From the IMG/VR virus record IMGVR_UViG_3300023371_000083: DNA of 64,000 bases; one strand, 5' to 3'. The notes beneath the pieces are model-generated. The model had not been told where the DNA came from. It searched no databases and worked only from the letters and a program-made list of their open reading frames with translations. Position 1 is the stretch's first letter. Every line of letters begins with the position of its first letter. Made by a program: the position numbers and the translations under genes. Positions 2,739-64,000 of this stretch are shown here, piece by piece. The stretch comes from a virus. Taxonomy: Duplodnaviria > Heunggongvirae > Uroviricota > Caudoviricetes.

Positions 2739-2754
2739 CAAGGAGTATAGAACA

Positions 2755-3394: not shown

Positions 3395-3409
3395 AAAGAG
3401 GTATCATAG

Positions 3410-4528: not shown

Positions 4529-4566
4529 TATAACTCATAATTGCAATAACTGAGAGGAGGAATTAT

Positions 4567-4968: not shown

Positions 4969-4980
4969 GGAGATGGGCTG

Positions 4981-5268: not shown

Positions 5269-5282
5269 CTTGAGGTGTTTAT

Positions 5283-5705: not shown

Positions 5706-5707
5706 AC

Positions 5708-6136: not shown

Positions 6137-6170
6137 GAAGTATTGGAACGGAATATTGGGGAGTGATTAA

Positions 6171-7385: not shown

Positions 7386-7400
7386 AGGAAAGGTGTCTCA

Positions 7401-7754
7401 ATGTTTCGGAAAATATTTACAGGCAAAAACAGCAGCACAGTGGTAGTCGATGGCAAAACTTATGAAGTCGAAGGCAATAACATTATGATTCGCAACGGCA
7501 AAATTATTGTTGATGGTAAAGTAATCAATGATGAAAAAGTCGGTGTTTCTAAAGTGATTGTTACAGGAAATTGCGAAAGCATTAATTGCGATGGCTCTGT
7601 AGAAATAAACGGCGATTCTGGCAGGGTTAAATGTGGAGGTAGTTGTCATATTGGTGGAAATGTCACTGGTGGTGTTTTTGCTGGTGGATCTGTAACCTGT
7701 GGAAATATTGAAGGCGATGTTCTTTCCAGTGGAAGTGTAATAGCTAAAGGATGA
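7401..7754 (+). CDS. bactofilin-like / polymer-forming Gly-rich beta-helical protein
   Basis: Repetitive V/G-rich segments (GxVxGxV...), typical of a bactofilin domain. Confidence 0.4.
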   Translation: MFRKIFTGKNSSTVVVDGKTYEVEGNNIMIRNGKIIVDGKVINDEKVGVSKVIVTGNCESINCDGSVEINGDSGRVKCGGSCHIGGNVTGGVFAGGSVTCGNIEGDVLSSGSVIAKG

Positions 7755-7776
7755 TATAAATGAAAGAAGTGATATA

Positions 7777-8157
7777 ATGAAAAATTTTAGAGCATTTGCT
7801 GATGAAAATTATGATTATTATGAATTAACAGAAAACTTGGGTTACAACAATTCTGGATACGGCATTCATAAATATCTTCTTCCAAAAGGTGCAATTTTTG
7901 TACATGATAAGCACGATCAAGTACATGGTTCTATTGCAGATGGTTGTTTAACGCTTTGTTGGACTCCAGATGGTAATTGTTATGGATGTTTGGGAGGCGA
8001 AGGGTTACATTTACACGCAGCATTCAAGAGAACATCTATGTTTAAATTAGTAAAAAAAGGAAAAAGCGCAATGATTGCAGAGGTTGAACATGTAATCGAG
8101 GATTTAGAGAAAAAATTGGAAGAAGCAAAAGAGAAATTAAAAGAAATGAGGGAATAA
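7777..8157 (+). CDS. hypothetical protein with C-terminal coiled coil
   Basis: ORF track. Confidence 0.4.
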   Translation: MKNFRAFADENYDYYELTENLGYNNSGYGIHKYLLPKGAIFVHDKHDQVHGSIADGCLTLCWTPDGNCYGCLGGEGLHLHAAFKRTSMFKLVKKGKSAMIAEVEHVIEDLEKKLEEAKEKLKEMRE

Positions 8158-8158
8158 A

Positions 8159-9274
8159 ATGTCATACATTTATCAACGCCCTTTACATGGGAAAAGCATT
8201 GGAGTGGTTTTTGGCTCTTTTGCACCATTACATAAAGGTCATATTGATTTAATTATGAAGGCTAAAAAAGAAAATGATGGTGGATGTATCGTTATTGTAT
8301 GTGGTTATGATGGCGACAAAGGTGAACCTATCATTCCCCACAATAAAAGATACAGATATGTAAGAGAATATTTTAAAGACGATGAAATGGTTGCGGTGTT
8401 CCCTGTAAACGATACAAAAATTGGGGCAAATGCGTATCCAGATGGATGGGAAGTCTGGCTAAAAGAATTTTTTAATATCTGGAATGTTGCTGTGACACCG
8501 GTATCAAAAGAAGCAAAAAGAGTATGGTATGTCGGAGATCCTAATTATCATTTTGACCTTGAGAAACGTGGTGAATGTGCAATTCTCGTAAATAGAATGC
8601 TAAATCCAATTTCAGCAACAATGATTAGAGCTAATCCTTATAAATATTGGGATATGATGGCTTATACATTTCACGGAGCATTTAGTCACAACATTCTAAT
8701 TACTGGTACTGCAAGTGAAGGGAAAACAACATTAGTAAAAGATTTGGGTAAATATTTTAATACAACATATAGTCATGAGATGCCAAGAGATTATATGGAG
8801 GAAATGTGCGTTCATGATACCGAATTAGACGCAGTTGATTTTCTCTCTTTTCTTCAGGGGCAATACAATCTGAATCGTAAAATGATTAATTCCCCATTAA
8901 ATAAAGGCGTATTTTTTGCAGATACAGATGCTCTGGTAACGCAAATGTATGCAAAATATTATGCTATGGATGATACATGTAAAATGACAAAAGATGATTA
9001 TTATATGGTGGTCTCTCATGTCGCACATGCATTAACTAAACGCAGTAGATGGGACAAGATTTTTGTTTTAATTCCTCATGGTAATTTTGTGAATGATAAT
9101 TCACGCTATATGGAGCATAGCGGTATGAAAGAAAGGATGGAATTGTATAAAATTCTTGAATCTTTTCTTATTGCTCATGGGTTAATGGAAAAGGTAACAA
9201 TTTTAACAGGAGATTATTATGAGAACTATCTTGCAATTAAGGAATATACGGAAGGGGTGTTAAATCATGGGTAA
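8159..9274 (+). CDS. nadR: NadR-like bifunctional NMN adenylyltransferase / ribosylnicotinamide kinase
   Basis: N-terminal nucleotidyltransferase motif GSFAPLHKGH (HxGH), followed by the P-loop GTASEGKTT of the kinase domain. Confidence 0.65.
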   Translation: MSYIYQRPLHGKSIGVVFGSFAPLHKGHIDLIMKAKKENDGGCIVIVCGYDGDKGEPIIPHNKRYRYVREYFKDDEMVAVFPVNDTKIGANAYPDGWEVWLKEFFNIWNVAVTPVSKEAKRVWYVGDPNYHFDLEKRGECAILVNRMLNPISATMIRANPYKYWDMMAYTFHGAFSHNILITGTASEGKTTLVKDLGKYFNTTYSHEMPRDYMEEMCVHDTELDAVDFLSFLQGQYNLNRKMINSPLNKGVFFADTDALVTQMYAKYYAMDDTCKMTKDDYYMVVSHVAHALTKRSRWDKIFVLIPHGNFVNDNSRYMEHSGMKERMELYKILESFLIAHGLMEKVTILTGDYYENYLAIKEYTEGVLNHG

Positions 9275-9986
9275 AACAAAAGATATCTTAAAAAGTGAAT
9301 TTGTTAATGGTTATACAACCTTTGATAAATTATTTATGGGGATCATGGTATTAATGCAAATCATTGTTTTTGCAATTACTCCTGATTCGCCTATTGCGAT
9401 TATCGCCGGCATTAGTGGTGTGATTTCTGTTGTGCTTTGTGCTAAAGGAAAAATTTCCTTTTATTTTATTGGCTTCATTCAGACGATTACATATTTAATT
9501 CTGTCTTGGCAGAATCGATTTTATGGAGAAGTAATTGAAAATGTATTTTACCTTGTAACAATGGTGTGGGGAATTTTTATTTGGAAAAAACACTTGAATA
9601 CAGATGATAGTGGTTCTACACAGGTTGACGCTTTGAAATTTACACCAAATCAATGGATTGCATCTAGTGTATTAATTATTATTGCCACCATTGTTATGGG
9701 GTGGATGCTTACAAAGATTGGGAGCAATCAGGCATATACAGATGCAGCAACAAATGTAATTGCGATTTTTGCTCAATTATTAATGGTAAAAAGATATAGA
9801 GAGCAGTGGCTGTTCTGGATTGTAATTGATGTACTTTGCATTAAACTATGGGCTGTAGCAGGAAACTGGTCTATGGTAGCAATGTATATTGGATGGACGG
9901 CAAATTGTATTTATGGTTGGAAAAACTGGAGTGAATCTGTATCTTATAGAAACGATGAAAAACTAATGGTGATTAGGGAGGTATAA
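9267..9986 (+). CDS. pnuC: PnuC-like nicotinamide riboside transporter
   Basis: Multi-TM protein of 239 aa. Overlaps nadR by 8 nt, matching the classic nadR-pnuC pairing. Confidence 0.55.
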   Translation: MGKTKDILKSEFVNGYTTFDKLFMGIMVLMQIIVFAITPDSPIAIIAGISGVISVVLCAKGKISFYFIGFIQTITYLILSWQNRFYGEVIENVFYLVTMVWGIFIWKKHLNTDDSGSTQVDALKFTPNQWIASSVLIIIATIVMGWMLTKIGSNQAYTDAATNVIAIFAQLLMVKRYREQWLFWIVIDVLCIKLWAVAGNWSMVAMYIGWTANCIYGWKNWSESVSYRNDEKLMVIREV

Positions 9987-9987
9987 C

Positions 9988-10566
9988 ATGAAGCTAACTG
10001 TAAACTACATCAAAAATTGTAAGCCGGTAGATTCAAGATTACTGGAAAAGATTGATGAAATTTTAGATGAAATTTCAACATTAGATAATGAAACTAATCC
10101 AGAAGAATATTTTGGATTTGAATTAAATGGTATTAAATATGATGTATTTCAAATCGATCAAACAAGATGGAGTGATGAAGGAAAATATCAGTATAGACAG
10201 GATCTGTATCAGTTAGTGTCTTATGATGATTCTATCAGACCTTATGTTTGCGACAAAAGTATTGTAAACTGTTTTAATTGTTTCTTTGAAGTAGCTGTAA
10301 CACGGTCTGGATCGTACTTTAGCGACTATATGTATTGGTATGAGAAACCAGTTATGAAATTCGGTAAAATAAAACATATTCCTGAAGTAGTAATTCCTGA
10401 ACATGATGAATATGAACTAACAGAAACATACATTATTGATTGCAGAATGTGTGATAAATTAAATGAAACAGGTGATGCATGTAAAGTGTACGGAAGTGAT
10501 CCGAAAATTGCAACAGAAAAATGTACGACAGATGGCTTTAAAGAATACTATGTAAATATTGAATGA
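9988..10566 (+). CDS. hypothetical Cys-rich protein
   Basis: ORF track. Confidence 0.4.
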   Translation: MKLTVNYIKNCKPVDSRLLEKIDEILDEISTLDNETNPEEYFGFELNGIKYDVFQIDQTRWSDEGKYQYRQDLYQLVSYDDSIRPYVCDKSIVNCFNCFFEVAVTRSGSYFSDYMYWYEKPVMKFGKIKHIPEVVIPEHDEYELTETYIIDCRMCDKLNETGDACKVYGSDPKIATEKCTTDGFKEYYVNIE

Positions 10567-11281
10567 GGTGAAGCTATTGAAAAAAAGACCGTTAAATAAA
10601 GGGAACCGTGTTGTTGTAATCAGTGACTGTAATAGCTATGGTGAACATGGGAAAATTATTGATGATTCTTGCGCTTATAGCGGGCATCATTATAGGCATG
10701 TAAAAGTTCGCCTTGATAATGGTAAAAGCTCTAACTATAATATTGGATCTTTGATTCATGAAGATGAATACAATGATAAAGGATATATAAAAGCAGAGGG
10801 GGAAGATATTATGACAAATAATTACGAATATGTTGCTAGAGTACAGTTGATGGAAGATGCATATAAAAGGGATTATTACTTTGCATTGTATCCAGGAGAT
10901 GTAGAAAAGGTTTCTGAATATAAGCCCGGCGAAGAAATTGATACAATGGTAATTGTAAACGCTAGGGGAGAAAGCAAGAGACAGATTGCATTTGTAAAAG
11001 AGATTATCTCAGCCGCTGAATATGGTAAAGATGTAACAGCGCAGGTTGTAGGGGTTGTTAATATGCATCCTTATTACCATAGAAAACATACAGAAAGTGT
11101 TGTGGCAGCAATTGAAAAACAGAGAGCTGTTATTGAGGCTGCACTGCAGGCAGAAATTGCAAAAAGAAAAACGATTGAGTATTATGAAAAAATCGCAAAA
11201 GAATATCCTGAAATTGGTGATATGGTCAAAGATCTAAAAGCTCTGGAAGAACAAAAAGACAAGGTAATCACTAATGGTTAA
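10559..11281 (+). CDS. hypothetical protein
   Basis: ORF track. Confidence 0.4.
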   Translation: MNEVKLLKKRPLNKGNRVVVISDCNSYGEHGKIIDDSCAYSGHHYRHVKVRLDNGKSSNYNIGSLIHEDEYNDKGYIKAEGEDIMTNNYEYVARVQLMEDAYKRDYYFALYPGDVEKVSEYKPGEEIDTMVIVNARGESKRQIAFVKEIISAAEYGKDVTAQVVGVVNMHPYYHRKHTESVVAAIEKQRAVIEAALQAEIAKRKTIEYYEKIAKEYPEIGDMVKDLKALEEQKDKVITNG

Positions 11282-11513
11282 ATTGTTATATAAACCAACG
11301 GCTTTTAAATGTAGTTGTAGTAACTGCGGTGCGGTACTACAATTTGAATATACTGATGAAAAAAAGGTGTTTGATATGTATTCTGGAGAATATTATATAG
11401 TAACATGTCCAAACTGCTGCGCAGATGTGAAAACCAGAGATAATTCAGATGATTATAGAACACCAATTTTTCTAAAAGATTCTGATATTAAAAAGGAGGA
11501 AGAAAATGAATAA
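11274..11513 (+). CDS. small zinc-ribbon protein
   Basis: CxxC...CxxC pattern. Confidence 0.35.
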   Translation: MVKLLYKPTAFKCSCSNCGAVLQFEYTDEKKVFDMYSGEYYIVTCPNCCADVKTRDNSDDYRTPIFLKDSDIKKEEENE

Positions 11514-11736
11514 CCCTCTATTAAAAACAAAACTAACGGGAAAAGAAAAATCGAAATTGTATGATTGTATAGATAAGAACGGAAAATTATATATTTCCAT
11601 CAGCGAAGATGATGTATGTATGATTAATACGGATACGGATACAAGAGTAGTTTCATTTGGAGCATTAACACCTGAATTGATGCAGGATATTCTTAGATTT
11701 TGTGGTATATATTGCAAAGTTGATAATGCAACTTAA
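11506..11736 (+). CDS. hypothetical protein
   Basis: ORF track. Confidence 0.35.
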   Translation: MNNPLLKTKLTGKEKSKLYDCIDKNGKLYISISEDDVCMINTDTDTRVVSFGALTPELMQDILRFCGIYCKVDNAT

Positions 11737-11744
11737 AATAATTC

Positions 11745-11790
11745 TAAACTAAAAAATATTGTTGACCGTGGGACATACAAATGCTATAAT
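11745..11790 (+). promoter_or_regulatory. sigma70-like promoter (TTGACC-17-TATAAT) with AAACTAAAAAATATTGTTGAC motif
   Basis: Direct read: TTGACC at 11762-11767 and TATAAT at 11785-11790. Confidence 0.5.
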
Positions 11791-11831
11791 AAATATGTAA
11801 CCCAAACAAAACATTTTTTTTAATCACTATT

Positions 11832-11871
11832 AAACTAAAAAATATTGTCAGGGGGTAAAACTATTTATACT
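11832..11871 (+). promoter_or_regulatory. promoter-like element (TTGTCA ... TATACT) with the same upstream motif
   Basis: Direct read. Second copy of the motif, 87 nt downstream of the first. Confidence 0.4.
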
Positions 11872-12075
11872 CATGATGAACCTCCCCTGTGTTTTTTGAG
11901 AGAGTTTTCATGTGAGAAATGTAATGCATTTCAATCGTATGACTCAGATGAATGTAAATGGTTAGATTATGGCACTTATAGTGTGAAAGTCACAAAATGC
12001 AAGCAGTGCGGATGTGTGCATGTGATTCGCTATGAGGAGTCGTCAGGGTTATATGTAAACACAGATGGACGGTAG
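11845..12075 (+). CDS. questionable small Cys-rich ORF (TTG start inside the promoter; ends in TAG with in-frame continuation to TAA near 12111)
   Basis: ORF track only; start overlaps the promoter element. Confidence 0.2.
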   Translation: MSGGKTIYTHDEPPLCFLREFSCEKCNAFQSYDSDECKWLDYGTYSVKVTKCKQCGCVHVIRYEESSGLYVNTDGR

Positions 12076-12139
12076 TACGATTATTAGAAAGGAAGAAAAG
12101 GAAATGAGTAATTAGTTCAGCAGATTAAATGCAGTCGGA

Positions 12140-12700
12140 ATGAGTGAAAAAGAAAAGATTAAAAATAATCTAACTTATATCGACTGGGCTTCTGTTTGGG
12201 GTGAGATGAAAAAAATCTACCCAGACGCTAATTATGAAATTCACAGAAACCAAGATTTTAGACCTTGGTTTGATGATGGTAGATCCGGCTGGGTAACAGT
12301 TACTGTATCTGTACCTTACGAAGAAGGTAAAATTGTATCCCATACTGTTGATCTTCCAATCATGGACTTTAAAAACAAATCCATCGATGCAGAGAAAATT
12401 ACATCATTTGATGCAAATAAATCCTGGCAAAGATGTTTGGTAAAAGCGTGTGCAATGCATGGTTTAGGTCTGTATGTATACGCAAAACTGGAAGATACAG
12501 AAGAAAATATGGAAATTCTAAAACTTAGAAGTGAATGTATGCAACTGATTTCTGCAAAAGCAAAAGACTCAAAAGATGAAGTAGCAAGAATTTGTATTGA
12601 AGCAGATCCAGAGGCGAATGGCGACCCTAGATTAATGAATGATGTAGAAACTCTGAGAGCGCTAGCAAGAAGGCTAAAAGCAATCAGGGCAAAGAAATAA
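12140..12700 (+). CDS. Sak/Rad52-like single-strand annealing protein (DUF1071-like)
   Basis: YIDWASVWGEMKKIYPDANYEI and the C-terminal HGLGLYVYA resemble the Sak family. A better-RBS ATG at about 12104 is in frame but requires reading TAG at codon 4. Confidence 0.5.
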   Translation: MSEKEKIKNNLTYIDWASVWGEMKKIYPDANYEIHRNQDFRPWFDDGRSGWVTVTVSVPYEEGKIVSHTVDLPIMDFKNKSIDAEKITSFDANKSWQRCLVKACAMHGLGLYVYAKLEDTEENMEILKLRSECMQLISAKAKDSKDEVARICIEADPEANGDPRLMNDVETLRALARRLKAIRAKK

Positions 12701-12714
12701 TGGAGGTTTAATTT

Positions 12715-13080
12715 ATGTTTTCTAATGGAGCTTATGCAACAATTTGGGAAGTAAAAGAAGCGGAAAAATATTGCGATGTAAGAATTAGTACAAGCAAAAA
12801 AGTTGGAGATAAAAAATATGAACAGGATTTTTCTGCAAATGTAAGATTTGTCGGCAATGCCAAAGAAGTTGTTAGAGGCATGAAAGAAAAAGACAGAATT
12901 AAAATCATCAACTGTGGTGTAAGTAATCAGTATAACAAAGAGAAAAAACAGCTGTACACAAATTATGTTGTTTTTGAATGTGAGAATGTTACTGGTGGTA
13001 CAACAACACCAGCTGTAAAACCAGCAAAAGATGATTATAAGCCACTGGAACCTATTACAGATGAAGATCTGCCATTTTAA
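12715..13080 (+). CDS. ssb: single-stranded DNA-binding protein (short OB-fold SSB)
   Basis: C-terminal acidic tail DEDLPF is diagnostic of SSB. RBS GGAGG. Confidence 0.65.
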   Translation: MFSNGAYATIWEVKEAEKYCDVRISTSKKVGDKKYEQDFSANVRFVGNAKEVVRGMKEKDRIKIINCGVSNQYNKEKKQLYTNYVVFECENVTGGTTTPAVKPAKDDYKPLEPITDEDLPF

Positions 13081-13102
13081 TTGATGAAAGGGGGAAATTT
13101 GT

Positions 13103-13693
13103 GTGAGCGATATCGCTGCAAATTATGAAAGATACCTTAACCTTTGGCGTTCAGTAAAAAGAGACGGTATCAATGAGGTTATTAATTTTATTGAGAAATC
13201 AGATATGAAAACGGCTCCAGCAAGCACAAGATTTCACTCTGATTTCGAAGGCGGTTTACTTGAACATAGTTTAAATGTATATGACTGCTTGGTCGCAAAA
13301 AAAGAAGCCCCAATCTGGAAAGATAAATTAAAAGATGTTTCTGAAGAAGCAATGATTATCACTGCATTGGGTCATGATTTTTGTAAATTGTATTTTTACA
13401 AAGAAGGTACAAGAAATGTAAAAAATGAGGATACAGGAAAATGGGAAAAAGTACCTTTTTATTCCATTGAAGATAAGTATCCACTCGGTCATGGTTCTAA
13501 GAGTGTTATTTTCTTGCAGATGTTTATGAAATTAACAATGGAAGAAATCATGGCAATTAATTGGCATATGGGGTTCTCAGTTCCTAAAGAAGAATATTCA
13601 TCCGTTGGAAAAGCGTTTGAAAAATATCCTCTTGCTCTGGCACTGCACGAGGCGGATCTGGAAGCTACTAATCTGCTTGAAGCAGATGGCTAA
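13103..13693 (+). CDS. HD-domain phosphohydrolase
   Basis: H...HD motif (LEHSLNV ... ALGHDFCK). Confidence 0.55.
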   Translation: MSDIAANYERYLNLWRSVKRDGINEVINFIEKSDMKTAPASTRFHSDFEGGLLEHSLNVYDCLVAKKEAPIWKDKLKDVSEEAMIITALGHDFCKLYFYKEGTRNVKNEDTGKWEKVPFYSIEDKYPLGHGSKSVIFLQMFMKLTMEEIMAINWHMGFSVPKEEYSSVGKAFEKYPLALALHEADLEATNLLEADG

Positions 13694-14162
13694 AGAATAT
13701 ACATGTGGATTTAAATATTGCTCACATGAAAATAAAAAAGTGCCAGAGGGTGAGGCAATAAAGTCCGGTACAAGGTATTTCCATAAAGATTGTTTACGAG
13801 TAAGAGATAATATGGATGCTGTAAAACGTATTTATTATGAAAATATTAGTAATACGGTTGTTATAGCACAATTGGTAAAAGTCATTCAAACCATTGTAAT
13901 CAACAAAGGTGTTGATTCTGAATTTCTGTTATTTGCAATTAAATATGCAGTCGCAAAAAAAATGACAATTAGAAGCCCATACGGATTACATTATTTAATT
14001 GATAATGCAATGATAAAAAATGCGTGGAACGCAAAACAAGCAAAAGAAGAAAAACAGAAAATTACTGAATTAGCTAAGTTACAACCGAGAGAATCTGAAG
14101 TGACTTTTACAGTTGCAAAAAGAAAAAAAGAAGGTTTTGATAGTATTTTTGGAGGTGGTTAA
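13686..14162 (+). CDS. hypothetical protein
   Basis: In-frame ATG at 13686 overlapping the upstream stop (ATGGCTAA). The ORF track's 13605 start is probably too early. Confidence 0.4.
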   Translation: MAKEYTCGFKYCSHENKKVPEGEAIKSGTRYFHKDCLRVRDNMDAVKRIYYENISNTVVIAQLVKVIQTIVINKGVDSEFLLFAIKYAVAKKMTIRSPYGLHYLIDNAMIKNAWNAKQAKEEKQKITELAKLQPRESEVTFTVAKRKKEGFDSIFGGG

Positions 14163-15513
14163 TTTGGATACAAGAGAAATTTGTGATATTCAGGCGGAAA
14201 GCGGTGTCATTGCAACTTTGGTTTATCATCCAGAATATATCCTTCATTCAGAATATTTAAAAGCCGGGTATTTTTCAAGTAAGGATAATGGTTGTATCTA
14301 CTGGGCGATTAATGAACTGTTTAAAAGAGGCATTGATAATATTGATGCTTTCAACATTTCAAATATGATTGCCAGTCATCCTGCGGTGCAAAGAACAATT
14401 GATCAATATAATATGCCAGCAATTCAAGAATTTATTGATATGTGTGATGAAGTTGCTAGACACAGCATCGAAGAATACACAATGCTGGCAAAAGCTGTTA
14501 CAACATATGCTTTCAAAAGAGATTTGATGAAATTAACAACTGAAGTTGAAGCCAACTGCAGAAATAGGGCAATTGGTTTAGGAGAATTAAATGATGTTGT
14601 TTTTAAAAAATTAAATTCTCTAACAGAAAAATATATCGTATCAAGTGAAATTAAAATGTTTGGTGATTCTTCAGAATTCTTATGGGAAGAAATCTGCGAT
14701 AGAAGAAACGACAGTGGTACTTATGGTATACCTTCTAAGTATGAATCACTGAATGAATATTACACATATGAGCCTGGGGAGCTTGTTGTGGTACAGGCAA
14801 AGTATAAGCAAGGTAAAAGTGTTTTCCTGCTAAACGAAACTGTACATAAATTAAAAAACGGTGTGCCAACACTTGTTGTAGATACAGAAATGTCTGACAG
14901 ATTGTATATGGAACGTCTAGTGTCACATGTTTCTGGTATTGAAGTTAAGCGAATTAAAAATGGTAGATATACACCAGAAGAAGGAGAACGTATTAGAGAA
15001 GCGAGAGAATGGATTAAAAAACAGCCATTTGTTCATATCTACGATCCAGATATGACAGATGAAAAACTTTATTCTATTTGCAAAATTCTTAAATATAAAA
15101 TGGACTTACAGTTTGTTGTATATGATTACATCAAAAGTAACGAAACATCTTCTTCTGATAATTACAATATTCTTGGTGCGAAATGTGATTTTCTTAAAAA
15201 CAATATTGCCGGTGATTTAAACTTGGCTGTTTTATCTGCGTGCCAGCTAAACAGAAATGGTGAAGTTGCCGACTCTATGAAAATCAACAGATACCTTTCC
15301 GTTGGTATTAAATGGTTTATTAAAACACAAGAACAAATTATGCGTGATGGTTCTGACTGTGGTAATGCTGGATTAAAAATCTATGTAAATAGACTTGGAC
15401 AGCAGATGCCAGAGGATGACGAGTTTGTGTATATCGACTTCTTTTTTGAAGGAGACACGATGAATATTACAGAGGCAAAACAACATTTAGACGAAGAAAC
15501 TCCGTTTGATTAA
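14113..15513 (+). CDS. dnaB: DnaB-like replicative helicase
   Basis: DnaB N-terminal-like region followed by a RecA-like domain. A TTG at 14164 with RBS GGAGGTGG is a likelier start than the track's 14113. Confidence 0.6.
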   Translation: MQKEKKKVLIVFLEVVNLDTREICDIQAESGVIATLVYHPEYILHSEYLKAGYFSSKDNGCIYWAINELFKRGIDNIDAFNISNMIASHPAVQRTIDQYNMPAIQEFIDMCDEVARHSIEEYTMLAKAVTTYAFKRDLMKLTTEVEANCRNRAIGLGELNDVVFKKLNSLTEKYIVSSEIKMFGDSSEFLWEEICDRRNDSGTYGIPSKYESLNEYYTYEPGELVVVQAKYKQGKSVFLLNETVHKLKNGVPTLVVDTEMSDRLYMERLVSHVSGIEVKRIKNGRYTPEEGERIREAREWIKKQPFVHIYDPDMTDEKLYSICKILKYKMDLQFVVYDYIKSNETSSSDNYNILGAKCDFLKNNIAGDLNLAVLSACQLNRNGEVADSMKINRYLSVGIKWFIKTQEQIMRDGSDCGNAGLKIYVNRLGQQMPEDDEFVYIDFFFEGDTMNITEAKQHLDEETPFD

Positions 15514-55784: not shown

Positions 55785-55817
55785 CCATATAAAAAGGAGA
55801 GGGGTCAACCTCTCCTT
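55785..55817 (-). terminator. rho-independent terminator (AAGGAGAGG-loop-CCTCTCCTT + T-run)
   Basis: Direct read on the minus strand. Confidence 0.4.
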
Positions 55818-57576
55818 ATCGTGTACTCATATACTGTTTGGCTAAATTAGGCAGATTCTGAATATCTCTAATAAAGCCACTTACATCTTGAACATTAGGT
55901 AATGCAATAGAATCAATATGATAAGAGTTCTGAATTGTACTAGATGGTCTAGGCACAATTGCACCACCGATTGTTTCCATAACAACTTTTTTAATATTTT
56001 CAGCAGGATTTATACCAAAATTCCAAAGATTTTTGGTAACATCTGCTGGTATTACAGAGCCGCCTTTGGCAATACGAACATACCTACCTTCATCTGGCTC
56101 AATGACAAATTCTGCACCTTTTTCATCGATATTATAAATATCAGATTTAAGATTTAAACCGCCTTTGGCTTTTTTCTTTTTCTTATCATCAGTTTTAATA
56201 ACCTGAGACCCATCAGTGCCACCAGAATATCCGTTTTGATTACGAATACTTTCAGCTTGACTGTGAGCTGCTGCCATGCCAGCTGTATCACCTTTAGCTT
56301 TTGCATCATTATATGCCTTTTGTGCAGCTTTAATTCCGTCAGAGTCTGACTGAGAGATTGTTGTAGAAACGCCGTTGCTACCATTAACGGTAACAGAGCC
56401 GCCTCCGCCACCGCCACCACTGCTAGGTCGACCGCCATTTCCACTACCACCAGATGATCCAGAACCACTAACGCTGATATTGACATTCATTCCTTCTTGG
56501 AATTCACTTTTTAATCCATTTGTAGCATCTGTTAATTCTCCAGTAGCATCTGTGTTGTCTTCAAGATTATCACTATTACCATGGATAGCATCTGTGTTTC
56601 CAGTTAAATTGGTTGAGTTTTTGTCTATATTTTTACTAGATTCTCTTAACTCTCTAACTTGTTCTTCGGTATACGCATTCGCTTCTTGTTTAGTAATAGT
56701 TTTACCAGTGTTGGGGTCAGTGTATTTTATTGTTGTCCAATAAGTTTCCCCACTATCACTATAACCATCGCTGACTACTTGCTTATTCCACCCAGACAAG
56801 TCTTCCCCTTTAGAAGATACTGATTTTTTAGTTCCATCAGGGTCGTAATGACCTCCACCAGATAATTGAACAAGTTTTTTCGCTTCTTCTGCTGTTAGTA
56901 CACCACTATCAATAAGTTTTTGTACCTCTTTTTGGTTTGAAGCATCTAGACCCCAAATAGATTTTGTTGTACCAATAATACCAGCTACAGGGGCTCCACC
57001 ATAAGCATCACTACGACTGTTTTCGTGGAATACAGTGCTATATCCATCAGCACCAATTCTATTGTAATCCTTGCCATCAACTAAAGGTCTTAATGTGCCA
57101 TCCAGATATTGTGCTCGTACAGCATCAGCCAATTCATGAAGGCGATCCATTAGTTCTGTATTGCCTTGTGCTTTTGCTGTATTCCAAGCTGCTTGTAGTT
57201 GTTTAACATAAGCCTGATCTTCAGGAGACATCATACTGTCATTGAAGTTTTCTAGTGTTCCAGAGACTATGCCTTCTATAATCTCTTCTTGCTCTAGAAT
57301 AGGTACTTCAAAATTACTAATTGCGTACGCCAAATCATCTAAAGCGTAAATCATATTACCAATTTTAACAGTATTTTCATCAACGCTGACGCTATTGCCA
57401 TCTAAAGAATCAATATTTTCAAATATTGAACCAAGCTGATCAGATGTTAAAGTATTGTTTTCGCCAATTGCTTTGGCAAGATACTCATCACCAATAATAC
57501 TGCGGATTAGTATCGATATGTTTCTCTGCAGTATCAATAATGTCTTGAGTTTTTTTGCTATTGTTATATAATGCAC
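55816..57576 (-). CDS. tail protein (586-aa frame) with Gly-rich linker; 5' end overlaps the TMP 3' end in another frame, so the start is uncertain
   Basis: Coding-like sequence begins right at the TMP stop (IIGDEYLAKAIGENN...) with no canonical start until MIYALDD. Confidence 0.4.
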   Translation of the reverse strand: MHYITIAKKLKTLLILQRNISILIRSIIGDEYLAKAIGENNTLTSDQLGSIFENIDSLDGNSVSVDENTVKIGNMIYALDDLAYAISNFEVPILEQEEIIEGIVSGTLENFNDSMMSPEDQAYVKQLQAAWNTAKAQGNTELMDRLHELADAVRAQYLDGTLRPLVDGKDYNRIGADGYSTVFHENSRSDAYGGAPVAGIIGTTKSIWGLDASNQKEVQKLIDSGVLTAEEAKKLVQLSGGGHYDPDGTKKSVSSKGEDLSGWNKQVVSDGYSDSGETYWTTIKYTDPNTGKTITKQEANAYTEEQVRELRESSKNIDKNSTNLTGNTDAIHGNSDNLEDNTDATGELTDATNGLKSEFQEGMNVNISVSGSGSSGGSGNGGRPSSGGGGGGGSVTVNGSNGVSTTISQSDSDGIKAAQKAYNDAKAKGDTAGMAAAHSQAESIRNQNGYSGGTDGSQVIKTDDKKKKKAKGGLNLKSDIYNIDEKGAEFVIEPDEGRYVRIAKGGSVIPADVTKNLWNFGINPAENIKKVVMETIGGAIVPRPSSTIQNSYHIDSIALPNVQDVSGFIRDIQNLPNLAKQYMSTR

Positions 57577-60500
57577 CAGTTAATTCAACTGTTTCAGTTT
57601 TAAATGCTGTGCCCCATAAATTATCTGAAGGAGGAGTAGTATATTTATTATCAATTTTTGTGCTAGTAAACTTACCGTTTTCATCTTTCGCATCAATACG
57701 ATAAGTGCCACCTTTAGTATAAATATAGTCTCCTACCTGGGCTTGAGAGGGTGCTTTGCCATCTCGCTGAACATACCAATGTTTTCTTGTTGTTTGTCCG
57801 CTTTGACCAGCATGTAGTGCTGCATCATCCATAGCAATGTACATCTGCATCATTGCTTGGAATAATTTCATTGTTTGCTGATAACTCTCATTAGTCTTCT
57901 TGTTTAACTCTTCTGTTAAATCAAAAATATCTTGTTGGATATCAAAATAATTATCTTTGAAATCTTTATAAACATCGATACGGTCATTTAAGATATCAGA
58001 TTCCCAATCTGCGCCTAAAAGTTGTTCTGCAATTAAGGCATTTTGATATTTTTCAAATAACTCAGGAATTTCAGACCATTTTTCCTGTAATTTCTCTAAT
58101 GCTTCTTTTTGCTCTTCAAGTTTAGAAATAGTTTCTTCATATCTTAAATCAGATAAAGCCTCTTCTGCTTCACGAATTGCGTCCTCATCAGCCTCATAAA
58201 TAAAGCCTAAACCTTTTCTCAATACTCTACGAGTCTTTTGAGAATTAGCTTTATCCAATGCGGCTTGGGCTTTTTGCAGGTCTAACGCTTCTCTGCGTTC
58301 TTCGTTAGCTTTGTTTAAAGCATCAATTTCTTCATCAATTTTTTTCGCTCTTTCATCAAGCAAATCATTGATTGCAGATAAAACAGAATCTTGATCTTCT
58401 TGCTCAAGTTCTTTGATTTCGATTTCTTTTTCAATACGAGCTTCATAATAAGACATGTATGCCTTCATTAGCGCTTTGATTTCATCTTTTTTGCCTTCAA
58501 AATCATCTTTTGCAAGTTGTCCAAGACGTTTTAGTGAACGAATCATTAAATCCTCATAATGAGCAATAGAGTCGCCCATAGTAGATTCGCTATCATTTAA
58601 AAGATCAATTAATATTTCAATATCATCAATTGTTGAATCAAAGTGTTTTTTCTCCAACTCTTCTATGGATTTCTTTGTTTCAAGAATAGAGTAGGAGAGC
58701 TCCGTCCATTGTTCGGCAGAATCTTTATTAGCATCATTTAATTCATAAGTTTCATCAATGATTTTTTCATACTTTTTAATCTGATCCTCAGACAAAGTAT
58801 TTAAACGCTCAATGTTATTGATTTTTAGATGGTCTGTTTTTGGGTCATATGTAACATTAAATCCGCCAGCTCGCAATTCAGCAACTTTATTTGCAATTTC
58901 CTTGTCTCTTGCATTATTTAATGCGTCTAGGGCATCTTTTTGCTCTTGATATAAACCAATCAGCTTGTCTTGTAACGCTATTTGCTCTGAAATATCGTCT
59001 GTATGCTCATATGCCTGATTTAGGTGTGTAATTTTTAATTCAACATCTTCTACAGCGTCAGATAAATCTTTAAATTTATCAATATCTGCTTGATAAGGAT
59101 CTGAAGACGAACCGCCTCCAGATTTACCACCGCCAACAGGAGCAGCATAATCTACCTTTGTTACAGCATTATTAATAGCACTACTAATATTTTGTGCTAA
59201 ATAATCCACAGTAGACATTCCAGACCTTTCTGCTTGTCTGGCAACTTTTCTTTGATTTGCTTTGCTAACAAGTTCTGCAGCAACACCAGCATTTACAGCA
59301 AGAGTTTTTAGTGCAGTTATTTGTTGGCTAAAATCTAAGCCTTGATTATTGGTTTGAATCATCTGAATCTGTAATTGATATAACATATCTCTTGTTACAC
59401 CAATCGCAGAATTTTCTTGAGCAAATTTTACAATTGATTCATCTGTTATTTTTGTTAGGTCTTGTGATGCTAACCATGCACTAGCTTTTGCTTGTGCTAA
59501 AGCATAATTCGCAACTTCAACGGCGTTTAATGCACCTTCTTGTTCTAACCAAGCAACTGTTGCATCATAATTATCTTCTGTGATATTTTTTAATGCTTCT
59601 GAATCATAAAAATATGCTGTGGCAAGATCATTAAATGCTTGTTGACATTTATTTATATCATTAGGAGAATTTGATATTACTTTTAAGAAATTATCATACT
59701 CTTTTGTGTAGCCTTTAAATTTTTCCGCAAATCCAGCATCAATTAAAGAGTTATAATCAAAACCTTCTCCATCTGCAACATCTTTGTAAATAGCATGGAA
59801 TGCTTTTAATTCATCAGATGCTGTGCTTAGATTTTTGATATCTCCTTCAACGCTAATTTCAATAGGGCTGCTTTCAATATCATCTTTTAACTCATAATAG
59901 TTTTCGTGTAGATTATGAGTTTCATTAGCTACAGACTCTGCGTCAATAATAGCATTTTCGCCTTCAAATACCGCACCAATTTGTAAGTTTCTATAATCAT
60001 CAGCGCCGTTTAATACTTCATTAGCATAATTCTCTAATTCTTCTGGTGTTAAAACGCCAACATAATTACCATTTTTATCAACAATGATAGGTGTGAAGTT
60101 AATTGCTTTTGTTCCATCTTTATTGCTATATGTAGATGTATATACAGTAGCAGATCCTTCTCCGGCATCTGTCCAACCTTTTTTAGCCAATTCTTTAGCA
60201 TCAATAACAGGTCGATTTGTTAAGTCAACATTTCCGCCTTGACCAATTTGTGATAATCTTTCTTCAATTGCAGCGGTAGAATCACCCAATGCTGCATCAT
60301 AAGACACAATAGATTTATCTAAAGTATCCATGCCAGATTCATAAATTGCCTGAAGTTCTTTTAATACTCTTTCATACGCAGTTCCTTCAAAAGCCCCGCT
60401 TTCAAGGGCGTTTGTTACCATTTCGTAAGAACTAGCATATTTAGTATATTGTTGAATTGCACTATCACGATAAGAACCCATTGAAGCCATATAATCAGCT

Positions 60501-61333
60501 TCTTGTTGTACCAATTTAATATATTCAGAACTATTTTTATCTGTGTCAGCAATTTGTTTACGAAGATCATTCAAATATTGAATATCATTTTTTGCGGTTT
60601 GTGCAATGCCTTCAATATTACTTTTAGCAGTATCTGCGTCACCGCCATAAACTAAATCACCGTCTGAAAGAGCATCGCCAACACCAAATAATTGGCTTAA
60701 CACAAGTCTCTGCTGTTCAATTTTTAGTAAGCGCTCTTGATAATCAAGTTGACGTTCTAAATATCCAAGATGTTTATTTTCAGCACTTGTACGATTTGAT
60801 TTTCCATTTAATTCATCGTACTCATTTTTCAGTGATTCTACTTTTCCAGTTAATTCATCTACAATTTCTTGCTGTTCTTCTGCTGTGATATTAACTTTAT
60901 CAAAGATGTAAATTGCACCTTCAATAGCAAGAGACGCTGCAAGCATAACACCCATATTTCCGGCAGCCTTTAAAATATTCTTTCCGAAATTTTTCAGCGT
61001 TACATTGGCACCATTAACAGAATTCATTAATTTTGAATCTGATAACGACTTACGATTTGTTGATGTTAAATATTTTTCAATTGATTTAGATGCGTCCCCA
61101 AACTCTGAGGCAATCTTAGATGGATCTTCGCCACCAAGATATCTTGTAATAATACCATTTGCAACATCTTTGCTAATTGTTGTTTTTCCACCAGTGAAAA
61201 AGCCTTTTAGGTCTTTTACCGAACAATTGACTTTTATATTATTGTCAAGATATAATATAAAATAGAGAGTAGGTGGAATTATGAAAAAAGATATATTTTT
61301 AAATACACAAATTTGCACCGTATGCGGATGCAT
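57488..61333 (-). CDS. tape measure protein, C-terminal 1281-aa part (long coiled-coil region)
   Basis: Very long alpha-helical/coiled-coil ORF typical of a TMP; stop TGA. Confidence 0.7.
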   Translation of the reverse strand: MHPHTVQICVFKNISFFIIPPTLYFILYLDNNIKVNCSVKDLKGFFTGGKTTISKDVANGIITRYLGGEDPSKIASEFGDASKSIEKYLTSTNRKSLSDSKLMNSVNGANVTLKNFGKNILKAAGNMGVMLAASLAIEGAIYIFDKVNITAEEQQEIVDELTGKVESLKNEYDELNGKSNRTSAENKHLGYLERQLDYQERLLKIEQQRLVLSQLFGVGDALSDGDLVYGGDADTAKSNIEGIAQTAKNDIQYLNDLRKQIADTDKNSSEYIKLVQQEADYMASMGSYRDSAIQQYTKYASSYEMVTNALESGAFEGTAYERVLKELQAIYESGMDTLDKSIVSYDAALGDSTAAIEERLSQIGQGGNVDLTNRPVIDAKELAKKGWTDAGEGSATVYTSTYSNKDGTKAINFTPIIVDKNGNYVGVLTPEELENYANEVLNGADDYRNLQIGAVFEGENAIIDAESVANETHNLHENYYELKDDIESSPIEISVEGDIKNLSTASDELKAFHAIYKDVADGEGFDYNSLIDAGFAEKFKGYTKEYDNFLKVISNSPNDINKCQQAFNDLATAYFYDSEALKNITEDNYDATVAWLEQEGALNAVEVANYALAQAKASAWLASQDLTKITDESIVKFAQENSAIGVTRDMLYQLQIQMIQTNNQGLDFSQQITALKTLAVNAGVAAELVSKANQRKVARQAERSGMSTVDYLAQNISSAINNAVTKVDYAAPVGGGKSGGGSSSDPYQADIDKFKDLSDAVEDVELKITHLNQAYEHTDDISEQIALQDKLIGLYQEQKDALDALNNARDKEIANKVAELRAGGFNVTYDPKTDHLKINNIERLNTLSEDQIKKYEKIIDETYELNDANKDSAEQWTELSYSILETKKSIEELEKKHFDSTIDDIEILIDLLNDSESTMGDSIAHYEDLMIRSLKRLGQLAKDDFEGKKDEIKALMKAYMSYYEARIEKEIEIKELEQEDQDSVLSAINDLLDERAKKIDEEIDALNKANEERREALDLQKAQAALDKANSQKTRRVLRKGLGFIYEADEDAIREAEEALSDLRYEETISKLEEQKEALEKLQEKWSEIPELFEKYQNALIAEQLLGADWESDILNDRIDVYKDFKDNYFDIQQDIFDLTEELNKKTNESYQQTMKLFQAMMQMYIAMDDAALHAGQSGQTTRKHWYVQRDGKAPSQAQVGDYIYTKGGTYRIDAKDENGKFTSTKIDNKYTTPPSDNLWGTAFKTETVELTGALYNNSKKTQDIIDTAEKHIDTNPQYYW

Positions 61334-61766
61334 ATCCGAAGGGGCTGGCGACAGGCAATGTTATTATTGCAATGGCAAAACAGCCGTGTTAGAAGGAATT
61401 AATTTCTGGAATTTTGATGGTCATCGTGGAGATCTTGTTTTAACAACACAAGAAGATAGAGATAAAATTAGATTAAATTTCCAGCCAAAAGAAATGTATG
61501 ACCAAAGGGCATGGTTATGTCGTGAACACTATGAAGAATCTTGGCATAAGTTTGGAATTCCAGATGATATTTGGGGTACAAAATATCAAAATATAATAAC
61601 CGAATATAATCCAGATGTAATTCCTGCTCAATGTCCTCATTGCACCAGCTACTTCACAACAAAAATATCAACTGGTAGTAAACTATTCTCTGTTGGCTTA
61701 TTTGGTCTTGCATCAAATAAAGTAGGGAAACAATGGTATTGCCACACTTGTAAAACTTATTTCTAA
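61281..61766 (+). CDS. zinc-ribbon (N- and C-terminal CxxC pairs) protein on the opposite strand, inside the TMP interruption
   Basis: ORF with RBS GAGAGTAGGTGGA. Confidence 0.4.
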   Translation: MKKDIFLNTQICTVCGCISEGAGDRQCYYCNGKTAVLEGINFWNFDGHRGDLVLTTQEDRDKIRLNFQPKEMYDQRAWLCREHYEESWHKFGIPDDIWGTKYQNIITEYNPDVIPAQCPHCTSYFTTKISTGSKLFSVGLFGLASNKVGKQWYCHTCKTYF

Positions 61767-61824
61767 GGTGATGACCAATGAAATTGAATCAGAATATAGC
61801 AAATTTAATCTATGAATATGTTTC

Positions 61825-61974
61825 GCAAAGTTAAAGAATTTTTTAATAATATAACAGAAAAACAACAAAATATTATTTGTGGTGTTTCTGGTGTTATATT
61901 TGCCTTAATTATGGCAAAACTTTGTGAGATTATAGGTATTTGGATGTCTGAAATTTTCTTTTTATAAAATAGTG
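61825..61974 (+). CDS. small single-TM protein (49 aa)
   Basis: Direct read; followed by the hairpin GCAGGGGAGCAATCCTCTGC and a T-run. Confidence 0.3.
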
Positions 61975-62047
61975 CAGGGGAGCAATCCTCTGCTTTTGCT
62001 TTTCTTGACAATTTGTAGAAGCAAACTACAATTATTTTTTTTATCAA

Positions 62048-62399
62048 TTCTATACTACTTCTGTGATCGGATTCACTTGCTTAATTAGGCGAGTATAGAA
62101 CCATACACATCAAAAATAAAAATCTATGTATGGCAGTCCCGACTGTACCTCATACTCTTTCGAGCAAACTCCCATGCAGTCTGTGTGCCTTCCCGTTTAA
62201 CATATTTTCCGACATGTTACAACTACAAAAATGCAGAAGGGGCTTGGTGGCGGACTAGCGTATTATTCCAGCTTTTAGCATTATTTTTTAGCATGAGCCA
62301 AACACTTTGCTTTTTTCTGTGTTTCCACGACATTCACACTTACCCGTTAAGATTATGTTGTAGTGAAAGTGTTGTTAACGCCTCCCCGCAGTTTGAGAG
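62048..62399. other. 350-nt non-coding, GC-richer structured region between TMP segments (possible ncRNA/intron-like element)
   Basis: No ORF of any size; base composition differs from the flanking DNA; several local hairpins. Confidence 0.25.
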
Positions 62400-64000
62400 T
62401 TAATACGACATGGAGTTACCCCCATGAAGGGCATATACGATTGTAATACCAATACCTTTATAGGCTAGGAAAGAACCAGCAGCGGCAGACATTACTGTAG
62501 GCAATAAGCCTGCAGTTTTTACTAACGCTGTTAATAATTCTAACATTGTTGTTAATCCAGAAATAATTGTTTTAACACTATCTGAATTAACTGTTTCTGC
62601 CCAGAATTCTTCCATTGTTGCTCTTAGAATTTGGACTCTACCATTGATGGAATCTACAATTGCTTCGTTTTCACGCATAGCAGATCCTTCATCATCAGCA
62701 ATAGTTTCTAAAACTTCATCAATTGTTTCCCAGTTTTGTAGTAAGGAAGCAACTGCGTTAGCTCTGTTCTTACCAGCAATTAATTCTAGTAATCCGGCAC
62801 GATCAATGTCACTCATTTTCTCAAATGCTTGACCTAATCCTTTAGCAATTTCAGCTGTTGATTTAAAATCGCCAGAACTTGTTAAGATATCAAAGCCACC
62901 CAAACCATCAACATTTGTTAATGCTTTAATTTGAGCTCTCATTTTTGCAGTGGATGTAACCATACCATCTGTAGATTCACCCATCTGTTCAATTTCAGAT
63001 TTAACACCACGAATACGCAGTGAGAAAATTTTCAATGCAGAACCAGTTACTTCTGTGTCCTGTAATGCTTCATTCATTGCAGTACCCAGAGCGATAGATT
63101 CGGCAAATGTATTATTTGCTACGGCTAATGCTGAAGCGGAACGCTCCAGAACCTCACCAATACCCGCAGAGCTGATGGAGAAGTTATTACCAACTTCATT
63201 ATATGCGTCAATGATACTGATAGAGTCTTTTGCCTCAATATCAAAAGCCCTCATTGCAGTAATCATATCTTTGGTAGCGGTATTAATATCAATACCATCA
63301 CCAACATTTACATATACTGCAGCATTTTTTGCTAATTCGCCAGCGTATTCAATACTTTCACCTAATCTTAACCAGTCGGCTGCAGAATTTCTTAATTCTA
63401 CATTTGTGCTAGCAATTTCTTTTGCAGTTTGGGCTGTTTCTAATCTAAAAGATTCGTATGTTGATTCAGTTTCATCAGATACTTTACGAACTTCAACCAT
63501 TGCAGCATCCATGCTTCTCAATGCTTCAAATCCGTATCTGCCGATGTTAATAACTTCATATAAACTACCGAAGGACAGTAAGTATCTTAATACTTCACGC
63601 CATTTGCCAGCCAAGTTATCAACAAATTGACTTAAACGATTGATGGATTGACCTGTTGCTCTTGTTGTAGCAGTAACTGTTTTTGTTAACTTGCCCATTG
63701 ATGCTGTTAACTGAATTACTTCATTGTTCGCATCTTTAATTTGAGCAGTCCATTTCATAGTGCCAGAAGCTTTGCTTCCAGAAAAACCAGTAGACAGGAT
63801 TTCACCATATTGATTTGCTAAAGCCTTTAATTCATTTTCGGCTTCATCTAAAGTGTCTACGTTGACATCTAAAATTACTGTATCTTTTCTTTCTAGTAAT
63901 TCTAAAATTTCAACAATTTCTTTAACTCTACTTTCTACATAGAATTTCGCTTCATCAAGTTCTTGTTTATTAACATATCCACCTGAAAGTGTATTTTTTA
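62400..64000 (-). CDS. tape measure protein, N-terminal part (TP901-family core region); frame is open to the window edge, so the gene is partial
   Basis: ...GIGEVLERSASALAVANNTFAESIALGTAMNEALQ matches the TP901 TMP core. The frame is open from 63998 down to TAA at 62400. Confidence 0.7.
   Translation of the reverse strand, partial: KNTLSGGYVNKQELDEAKFYVESRVKEIVEILELLERKDTVILDVNVDTLDEAENELKALANQYGEILSTGFSGSKASGTMKWTAQIKDANNEVIQLTASMGKLTKTVTATTRATGQSINRLSQFVDNLAGKWREVLRYLLSFGSLYEVINIGRYGFEALRSMDAAMVEVRKVSDETESTYESFRLETAQTAKEIASTNVELRNSAADWLRLGESIEYAGELAKNAAVYVNVGDGIDINTATKDMITAMRAFDIEAKDSISIIDAYNEVGNNFSISSAGIGEVLERSASALAVANNTFAESIALGTAMNEALQDTEVTGSALKIFSLRIRGVKSEIEQMGESTDGMVTSTAKMRAQIKALTNVDGLGGFDILTSSGDFKSTAEIAKGLGQAFEKMSDIDRAGLLELIAGKNRANAVASLLQNWETIDEVLETIADDEGSAMRENEAIVDSINGRVQILRATMEEFWAETVNSDSVKTIISGLTTMLELLTALVKTAGLLPTVMSAAAGSFLAYKGIGITIVYALHGGNSMSY

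Follow-up and report, generated by a model that had tools for sequence, protein, structure and literature searches.

The stretch analysed here, referred to as the window, comprises 64,000 nucleotides (nt) of the Caudoviricetes virus record IMGVR_UViG_3300023371_000083. Its tape measure protein (TMP) gene, located on the minus strand, is split by an insertion of exactly 1228 nt (62447..61220), which is most likely a group I intron with unusual cargo. Coordinates are those of the window, and position i of the insertion corresponds to window position 62448 - i. Fetched loci of related phages carrying homologues of the N-terminal TMP part are designated by L-numbers (e.g., L003 or L012). The phage is described as SPbeta-like and tentatively assigned to gut Firmicutes; the host rests on two related prophage loci (Butyribacter and Kineothrix). 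No DNA-level match to known phages was found for the window in a distant-mode search of a phage collection.

The interrupted tape measure gene

The N-terminal part of the TMP is encoded by an open reading frame (ORF) of 452 amino acids (aa; 63758..62400, minus strand), which matches the Pfam family PhageMin_Tail (PF10145, E 1.6e-17) and ends at a TAA codon (62402..62400). The downstream TMP frame is open from 61333 to 57488 on the same strand (1281 aa). An earlier note on this DNA, made from the sequence alone, had recognized that the gene is interrupted by an insertion with opposite-strand genes. This is confirmed by two related loci, L012 and L013, whose TMP gene is continuous at the exact site; these are the uninterrupted alleles that the note had proposed to look for. 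Their N-terminal part is 75% identical to that of the window, and their ORF reads ...RLAYKGMG|(I/V)KDVGHTFKE... across the site. Joined without 62447..61220, the window reads ...AYKGIG|VKDLKG..., in frame. Three other relatives (L003, L061, and L064) share the window's layout of N-terminal part, structured segment, opposite-strand genes, and C-terminal part. They also give in-frame junctions at the same GGU| site, and each of their introns ends in G. The borders of the insertion therefore follow from the continuous alleles together with the in-frame junctions of intron-bearing relatives. The TAA at 62400 had been correctly placed, but the extent first given for the insertion (62400 to 61333, about 1.1 kb) did not stand.

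Exon 1 (62448..64000, minus strand; annotated ATG at 63758) is open to the window edge and ends with ...AAA GGU AUU GGU, the last codon (62450..62448) closing with U62448. The last base of the intron is a G, and exon 2 (57488..61219, minus strand; 1243 codons plus stop) starts with GUA AAA GAC (VKD) at 61219. The predicted ligated junction is ...AAAGGUAUUGGU|GUAAAAGACC..., i.e., AAAGGTATTGGT|GTAAAAGACC, and exon 1 from ATG 63758 together with exon 2 encodes a TMP of 1680 aa. The last 15 codons of the 452-aa ORF are read-through of intron sequence. The in-frame TAA (62400..62402, minus strand), 15 codons into the intron, ends translation of unspliced RNA, which would yield a truncated product of 452 aa. 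At the other border, the downstream ORF reads ...NCS|VKDLKGFFTGG.... Its first 38 codons, a hydrophobic stretch, are intron sequence read through, which accounts for the hydrophobic N-terminus that the earlier note had rightly found implausible. Neither a start codon nor a ribosome-binding site was found at the beginning of exon 2 (61219) in the window or in L003. In L003, where the 3' border of the intron lies at 12670 (locus coordinates), the exon-2 frame can be followed upstream for only 6 codons before it is closed, and no start codon occurs on the way. Exon 2 is thus not translatable on its own, since start codon and Shine-Dalgarno sequence are missing near 61219. Several samples yielded contigs with the same sequence, at least 21 in all and some about 130 kb long, and four diverged copies (window, L003, L061, and L064) all keep both exons open.

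Anatomy of the predicted ribozyme

A GC-richer structured segment inside the insertion had been noted previously. The segment is present (G+C of 0.39-0.46 compared to about 0.33 nearby), but it is not 350 nt long: it covers about 445 nt (62447..62003, minus strand), overlaps the end of the N-terminal ORF, and starts directly at the exon border. A manual model of helices P1 to P9.2, all on the minus strand, was built for this ribozyme part. P1 (62450-62446 with 62434-62430) pairs GGU|AU with AUGCC and includes the pair U(-1).G16. The internal guide sequence, 5'-UAUGCC-3', lies at intron 13-18 (62430..62435), and its G16 (62432) wobble-pairs (U.G) with U62448, the base at which exon 1 ends. In the window, P1 consists of this wobble, two G-C pairs to the exon, and two A-U pairs to intron positions +1/+2; the U.G pair and the helix are invariant across the four copies. 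The guide bases U13-U15 have two alternatives: intron +1/+2 as an extension of P1, or the exon-2 GUA (61219-61217) as a P10 of 3 bp.

The core follows downstream. P2 (62426-62409, intron 22-39) is closed by a GUAA loop. P3 joins 62401-62394 with 62174-62167 (intron 47-54 with 274-281), P4 joins 62389-62385 with 62254-62250 (intron 59-63 with 194-198), and P5 joins 62382-62378 with 62261-62257 (intron 66-70 with 187-191). The sequence of P3, J3/4, and P4 is AACUCUCA-AAC-UGCGGG, with AAC as J3/4. Another candidate for the P3 strand, AACUCCAUG, was rejected, as it is really the 3' strand of P2. An extension of P5 (116 nt, 62377-62262) bears a GAAA loop and an A-rich bulge, and the P6 domain (62243-62187) is branched. 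P7 (62183-62177 with 62145-62140) pairs CAGACUG with CAGUCG: C265-G308 is followed by the bulged A266 and by the pairs G267-C307 to G271-C303. This helix is judged to be close to P7 of Tetrahymena (CAGACU with AGUCG), and the P, Q, R, and S elements resemble those of Tetrahymena likewise. P8 (62166-62153) has a GAAA loop, and P9 (62133-62101), P9.1 (62100-62048), and P9.2 (62033-62010) complete the model.

A self-splicing intron had been put forward only as a guess, with the remark that no group I hallmarks were apparent by eye. The guess has become the best-supported reading, while the remark has to be withdrawn. Group I criteria are represented by the restored gene with its intron-less alleles, the U.G pair in P1, a terminal G (present in all four copies) with P10, and a conserved core of P3-P8, P4-P6, and P7, along with the bulged A of P7 and the GNRA loops. 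A separate observation concerns the first 7-10 bases of exon 2 (61210-61219), which are complementary to the U-rich P9 loop (62101-62133) in the window, L061, and L064 and, in a shifted register, in L003. This could be additional docking of the 3' exon or an A/U-rich coincidence, and it was judged uninterpretable.

Conservation of the structure and Rfam evidence

The alignment used for covariation comprised the window, L003, L061, and L064. A 16-mer search in IMG/VR for additional window-type ribozymes gave 18 matches, all unrelated chance matches, and two metagenome pattern scans gave none; the covariation analysis is for this reason limited to four sequences. Across the four copies, 99.8% of the cells of the model's 113 pairs are paired, and the lone unpaired cell, in P9.2, is attributed to gap placement in the alignment. 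Five pairs are changed on both sides: A-U to G-C in P5b, U-A to C-G in P6b, C-G to G-C in P7, and U-A to C-G in both P8 and P9.2. This number was reached by none of 500 shuffles, and slid controls gave 0-1. Eleven pairs differ between the window and L003, and ten of these still pair. Moreover, 15 G.U pairs are compatible only with the minus, TMP-sense strand. The window and L003 share 91.9% identity in the ribozyme, compared to 67.3% in exon 1, 54.3% in exon 2, and 56% in the rest of the intron. Between the window and L064, the ribozyme shows 2 changes in 480 nt.

The scan of Rfam that the earlier note had suggested gave nothing at gathering score, but it did give a sub-threshold match in register. 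In a focused scan of 62100..62460 (361 nt), Intron_gpI (RF00028) was the best of 4227 families. It matched 62455..62121 (minus strand) over the full model (1-253) with 17.9 bits and an E-value of 0.023, and its P1-P9 were placed on the same bases as in the manual model. As a control, the T4-type td and nrdB introns scored 39.3 and 35.6 bits, also below 50. The match is considered supportive but sub-threshold: it stays under the gathering score, the sensitivity of the test is limited, and the window scores below both controls.

Bridging the intron and the proposed splicing pathway

Directly after P9.2, a 5' strand AUUGUCAAGA (62003..62012, intron 436-445, minus strand) can form a closing helix of 10 bp with UCUUGACAAU (61241..61250, intron 1198-1207, minus strand), 21 nt before the 3' splice site. 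This helix was found in the window and in all relatives sharing its layout. In L003, it consists of UUGUUGAG with CUCAACAA, i.e., two compensatory changes; a single G.U change, able to pair only in the sense RNA, is found in each of L061 and L064. Because the closing helix pairs both sides, the middle of about 750 nt becomes the loop of a peripheral helix, the usual place of intron ORFs. P10 has 3 bp in the window (GUA with UAU) and 4 bp in L003. In the latter, the counterpart of G16 is the best guide candidate, with P1 and P10 of 3 and 4 bp.

From these sequence features, we infer that the window intron is catalytic and spliced in vivo. The late TMP transcript would include the intron, and the first 445 nt or so of the intron would fold into the P1-P9.2 ribozyme. 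The 10-bp helix would loop out the middle part and bring the 3' end beside the core. A guanosine cofactor would then attack after U62448, held in its wobble with the guide G16. Exon 1 would in turn attack after the terminal G61220, aligned by the short P10. Exon ligation is predicted to give ...AYKGIG-VKDLKG... and a TMP of at least 1680 aa.

The opposite-strand cassette

The loop carries a cassette on the plus strand whose parts, a zinc-ribbon gene, a tiny hydrophobic gene, and a terminator-like hairpin, had all been pointed out before and are located between the TMP parts. It begins with a promoter-like site (61227..61256; TTGACT, 18-nt spacer, TATAAT; 11 of 12 consensus matches), whose hexamers are kept in L003, L061, and L064. 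AGGTGG (61271-61276, plus strand) lies between this site and a gene for a 161-aa protein with four CxxC motifs (61281..61766). A gene for a hydrophobic (membrane) protein of 51 aa follows (61812..61967), conserved at the protein level in L061, L064, and L003. A terminator-like hairpin with a T-run ends the unit (61974..61993); on the minus strand, the hairpin corresponds to intron 455-474. A second promoter-like match (TTGACA-16-TACAAT, 62005-62032, plus strand) lies just past this terminator and points into the ribozyme in antisense. Its position is that of the P9.2 hairpin, and the match may have arisen by chance.

The C-terminal 46 aa of the 161-aa protein (61626-61766) form a zinc-ribbon module, CPxC...GLFGLAS.K.GKQW.C..C..F. 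In the general form CPxC..G.FG..S.K.GK.W.C..C, this module is a widespread C-terminus of small variable proteins. In a representative library, 595 proteins match the full-length query, mostly via the module, and a word search gave only 2 close homologues. The protein itself had no match above cut-off in Pfam and none in PHROGs or PADLOC, and a single-sequence AlphaFold2 model was unusable (predicted local distance difference test, pLDDT, 31). Compared to its counterpart in L064, the gene has 29, 11, and 55 differences at the three codon positions and thus looks like a genuine coding gene under selection. The two copies differ at 95 of 483 nt and 33 of 161 aa in phages that are otherwise near-identical. 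Set against a near-invariant ribozyme, this divergence suggests cassette exchange or fast evolution of the cargo protein. In L061, the cassette comprises a zinc-ribbon gene, a 116-aa ORF, and a 49-aa form of the small protein. L003 likewise has a zinc-ribbon gene, called with a length of 122 aa, and a 116-aa ORF, whereas its homologue of the small protein was not called as a gene.

The cassette is best explained as moron-like cargo housed in the intron, sparing the essential gene; the activity of its promoter and a function of the cargo are presumed from sequence. The moron considered in the earlier note is in this sense probably present as an opposite-strand unit of promoter-like site, two genes, and terminator-like hairpin, but only as a component that is looped out of the intron, not as the insertion itself.

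Relatives and other proposed intron classes

A fused query of the N- and C-terminal TMP parts gave 438 homologues of the N-terminal part, of which 120 were listed and 118 were alignable. None of the 120 listed matches covers both TMP parts. All 118 aligned homologues end 0-35 residues after one motif (FKNVG or YKGIG). The tails past the motif vary by class and through frameshifts and look like read-through into non-coding sequence. Six of 31 IMG/VR loci (L012, L013, L032, L033, L034, and L040) are uninterrupted at this site, and most relatives examined bear an insert in the same short TMP stretch, at two nearby sites.

Besides the window type, two classes of ribozyme were distinguished. Class B ribozymes occupy the same GGU| site (L004, L005, L007, L024; about 30 IMG/VR loci). 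A third class, typified by L008, is found at a nearby site on the exon-1 side, ...KNFD|QLKTVG..., and comprises L008, L016, L018, L022, L025, L030, L036, and L042 (about 8970-14270, locus coordinates). Its borders are ..UUUUGAU|UGGG at the 5' end and ..ACG|CAAUUAAAG at the 3' end, with a P1 of 5 bp, a P10 of 8-12 bp, and introns of 2.2-4.1 kb. Across the classes, the implied introns of the relatives measure 2.2-6.8 kb. In each class, a single guide sequence is complementary to both exon ends; in the other classes, exon and guide covary (GUCGGU/GCCGAC vs. GUUGGU/GCCAAC). Several class B members likewise possess a long-range closing helix. Its 3' strand occupies the positions 34 to 20 nt ahead of the 3' splice site, and the helix covaries as well (GUUGUUUGA/UCAAACAGC vs. 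GUUGUGGAG/CUCCACAAU). Rfam at gathering score gave no match on five related loci, and focused scans of the class B ribozyme (L005 and L007) gave no Intron_gpI match.

Seven relatives carry large inserts of 3.5-6.8 kb at the same TMP codon: L007 (10577-16185), L024 (8967-14918), L071 (reverse, 4236-7690), L085 (2021-8700), L086 (1069-7638), L119 (1343-8175), and L131 (reverse, 3400-8147). P1 and P10 have 7 and 10 bp in L007, and P1 has about 7 bp in L024. P10 reaches 7-12 bp in all seven, with at least 12 bp in L071, L085, L086, and L119; it was found only with G.U wobbles allowed, as an exact-match search missed it. From their sequences, these inserts resemble group I introns of giant size, with several cargo genes distributed over both strands. 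Several of them have a covarying helix shortly before the 3' splice site, and Rfam does not recognize their catalytic core. The cargo of the relatives includes a ToxN-family toxin (E 1.4e-34), GmrSD_N proteins, a 541-aa DUF559-like nuclease, a GNAT acetyltransferase, and helix-turn-helix proteins. The ORFs of the ToxN-family, GmrSD_N, and 541-aa proteins lie at L071 intron 1242-1835, L086 intron 2099-3097, L005 11530-12504, and L007 intron 1611-3236. No ToxI-like tandem repeats were found beside the ToxN-like gene of L071. The 541-aa protein, which has zinc ribbons and a weak DUF559 nuclease match, occurs only in some giant relatives and could be a homing endonuclease.

An antisense ORF with the zinc-ribbon module is present in 17 of 19 introns, covering all three classes, and lies within 54 nt of the 3' splice site in 14. 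The window intron may be the smallest member of a family of TMP group I introns that act as cargo platforms, with the antisense zinc-ribbon gene functionally coupled to the intron; we give this broader proposal slightly less than an even chance. Such a platform would consist of a 5' ribozyme, a covarying closing helix about 20-35 nt before the 3' splice site, and a loop of 0.75 to more than 6 kb, which would take up accessory and defence-type genes while leaving the essential gene intact. Speculatively, the antisense gene or its transcript would serve the maintenance, mobility, or splicing control of the intron rather than being arbitrary cargo.

Weighing the alternatives

Several points count against a group I intron in the window. 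Both P1 (three exon pairs plus two) and P10 (3 bp) have few pairs, and a naive scan for P1 and P10 ranks other G positions equally high. The covariation stems from essentially two divergent lineages, the window-like one and L003, and the helices were built from the same sequences, which favours them over the slid controls. In the window, no Rfam family reached its gathering score, and a scan of 2.7 kb remained empty at E<=10; the RF00028 match stays below the 50-bit gathering cut-off and comes from a preselected region. The minimum free energy did not differ significantly from that of shuffles (z -0.92 sense, -0.72 antisense). The intron ORFs of the window include no homing endonuclease of the LAGLIDADG, GIY-YIG, HNH, His-Cys box, or PD-(D/E)xK kinds (none above cut-off in Pfam, none in PHROGs or PADLOC), which leaves mobility unexplained. 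Finally, the TMP transcript could suffer from interference by cassette transcription running towards it.

Of the competing explanations, the one that fares best, while still unlikely, is a bipartite TMP. The two proteins would assemble non-covalently, the structured segment would be an intron relic or an unrelated RNA, and a moron would sit between two genes. Its strength is that the two-ORF layout is the rule in the family, as the 118 closest N-part homologues end no more than 35 aa from the same motif. The earlier note had named this layout in related phages, combined with a missing spliced transcript, as an argument against an intron; L003, L061, and L064 do have it, but the intron-less L012 and L013 exist too. 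Inserts of 2-7 kb with many genes on both strands also seem hard to transcribe and splice through. The split nrdA of Aeh1, reportedly divided by a mobile element yet functional, was counted on the same side. However, exon 2 lacks a start codon and a Shine-Dalgarno sequence of its own in the window and L003, and the interruption preserves the frame and falls on precisely the base across which the intron-less alleles run on unbroken. Moreover, 92% identity and compensatory changes would not persist in a relic where the flanking coding DNA has dropped to 54-67%, and complementarity of the guide sequence to both exon ends is retained in divergent classes. The naturally bipartite TMP entertained at first has lost most of its appeal for these reasons.

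Less probable again is a genuine group I intron that no longer splices, e.g., one crippled by its cargo, in a defective prophage. Repeated assembly of the same sequence (at least 21 contigs, some reaching about 130 kb, from several samples) is hard to reconcile with such decay, as are four diverged copies with open exons, a covarying closing helix, and a ribozyme that differs from L064 at 2 of 480 nt while the cargo differs at 95 of 483. Short P1 and P10, the missing homing endonuclease, the sub-threshold Rfam score, and the antisense promoter-like site within the intron are what this explanation can draw on.

Another type of element, either a group II intron or IStron as the earlier note had contemplated or a plus-strand non-coding RNA from the promoter-like match at 62005..62032, is hardly credible. 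Despite that match and a GUGUG pentamer within the segment, Rfam gave no group II or other family, the borders are U|A...G|G instead of GUGYG...AY, the window ORFs include no reverse transcriptase, transposase, or insertion sequence (IS), the 15 G.U pairs would turn into A.C mismatches in a plus-strand RNA, and the 62005 match is simply the sequence of the P9.2 hairpin. A group I intron with looped-out cargo thus remains the preferred reading.

Relation to known systems

The closest parallel is found in Bacillus cereus-group prophages, whose TMP genes contain the group I introns TMP-IVS1/2/3 (Tourasse and Kolsto 2008, PMC2504315). In both cases, the introns lie in frame in the TMP gene of Firmicutes prophages, several related introns occupy defined sites, and intron-bearing and intron-less alleles coexist. 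In contrast, the host phages and sequences described here are unrelated to those, the ORFs are antisense and not homing endonucleases, and relatives of the window intron reach 2-7 kb with multi-gene cargo.

The anatomy has a counterpart in the phage T4 nrdD (sunY) intron and other phage group I introns, which reportedly (work of Michel and co-workers, 1992) have the full core 5' of a looped-out ORF. The window intron shares with them a 3' splice site hundreds of nt away, short terminal pairings of the P9.0/P10 type, and a location in an essential phage gene. The T4 introns carry a sense-strand homing endonuclease, whereas the cargo here is antisense, with its own promoter-like site and terminator-like hairpin; RF00028 scores are 36-39 bits for T4-type introns and 17.9 for the window. 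Phage morons are said (by Juhala and co-workers, in 2000) to be promoter-gene-terminator cassettes between late genes. The unit at 61227..61993 is similar in having a promoter-like site, two small genes, and a terminator-like hairpin, in lying in the late structural region, and in varying between close relatives. Unlike morons, which lie between genes, it is placed inside a gene, within an intron loop.

For the large inserts, the giant ND5-717 group I intron of hexacoral mitochondria can be compared, as it houses several unrelated functional genes and has splice sites many kb apart (PMC6545197). Its cargo consists of conventional mitochondrial genes, and it is removed by back-splicing (PMC6545197). 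The likeness concerns the seven inserts of 3.5-6.8 kb (L007, L024, L071, L085, L086, L119, and L131), as the window intron has only 1.2 kb. Furthermore, the present system belongs to phages and has accessory or defence-type cargo. If the 2-7 kb relatives splice, they would be, to our knowledge, the first phage counterparts of the coral-mitochondrial giant group I introns. Searches of the open-access literature gave no description of phage group I introns that carry a self-contained cassette in antisense or cargo of several genes.

These observations have practical consequences. Standard Rfam screening overlooks the intron, and gene calling routinely divides the TMP of this phage family into at least two ORFs. 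Unless the exons are joined, both the length of the TMP and the tail length deduced from it come out wrong. A self-splicing intron as a safe harbour for an independently transcribed opposite-strand cassette would be unusual for phages. If the 2-7 kb relatives splice, the intron of an essential late gene would also join the known prophage hot spots for defence and accessory genes. The antisense zinc-ribbon module, with its 595 matches, gains a reproducible and testable genomic context. The family-level picture is a more interesting lead than the window intron alone.

Ends of the TMP reading frame

The frame of the N-terminal TMP part is open upstream of ATG 63758 (63759-64000) and past the window edge. 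A single in-frame TAG at about 64176 (L062 3581-3583) separates it from a 785-aa upstream ORF, and in L003, the homologous region is one 1092-aa ORF. This TAG could be a read-through or recoded stop, a sequence variant, or the boundary of two genes. No tRNAs were found in the window and no clear recoding signal for the upstream TAG. Stop-codon recoding as the cause of the TMP split is not indicated, considering that the stop is TAA, that the window has no tRNAs, and that read-through brings no clear gain. At the other end of the gene, the next ORF (55816-57576, minus strand; 586 aa) has a Gly/Ser-rich centre; 89 nt of it are shared, in a different frame, with the end of TMP exon 2.

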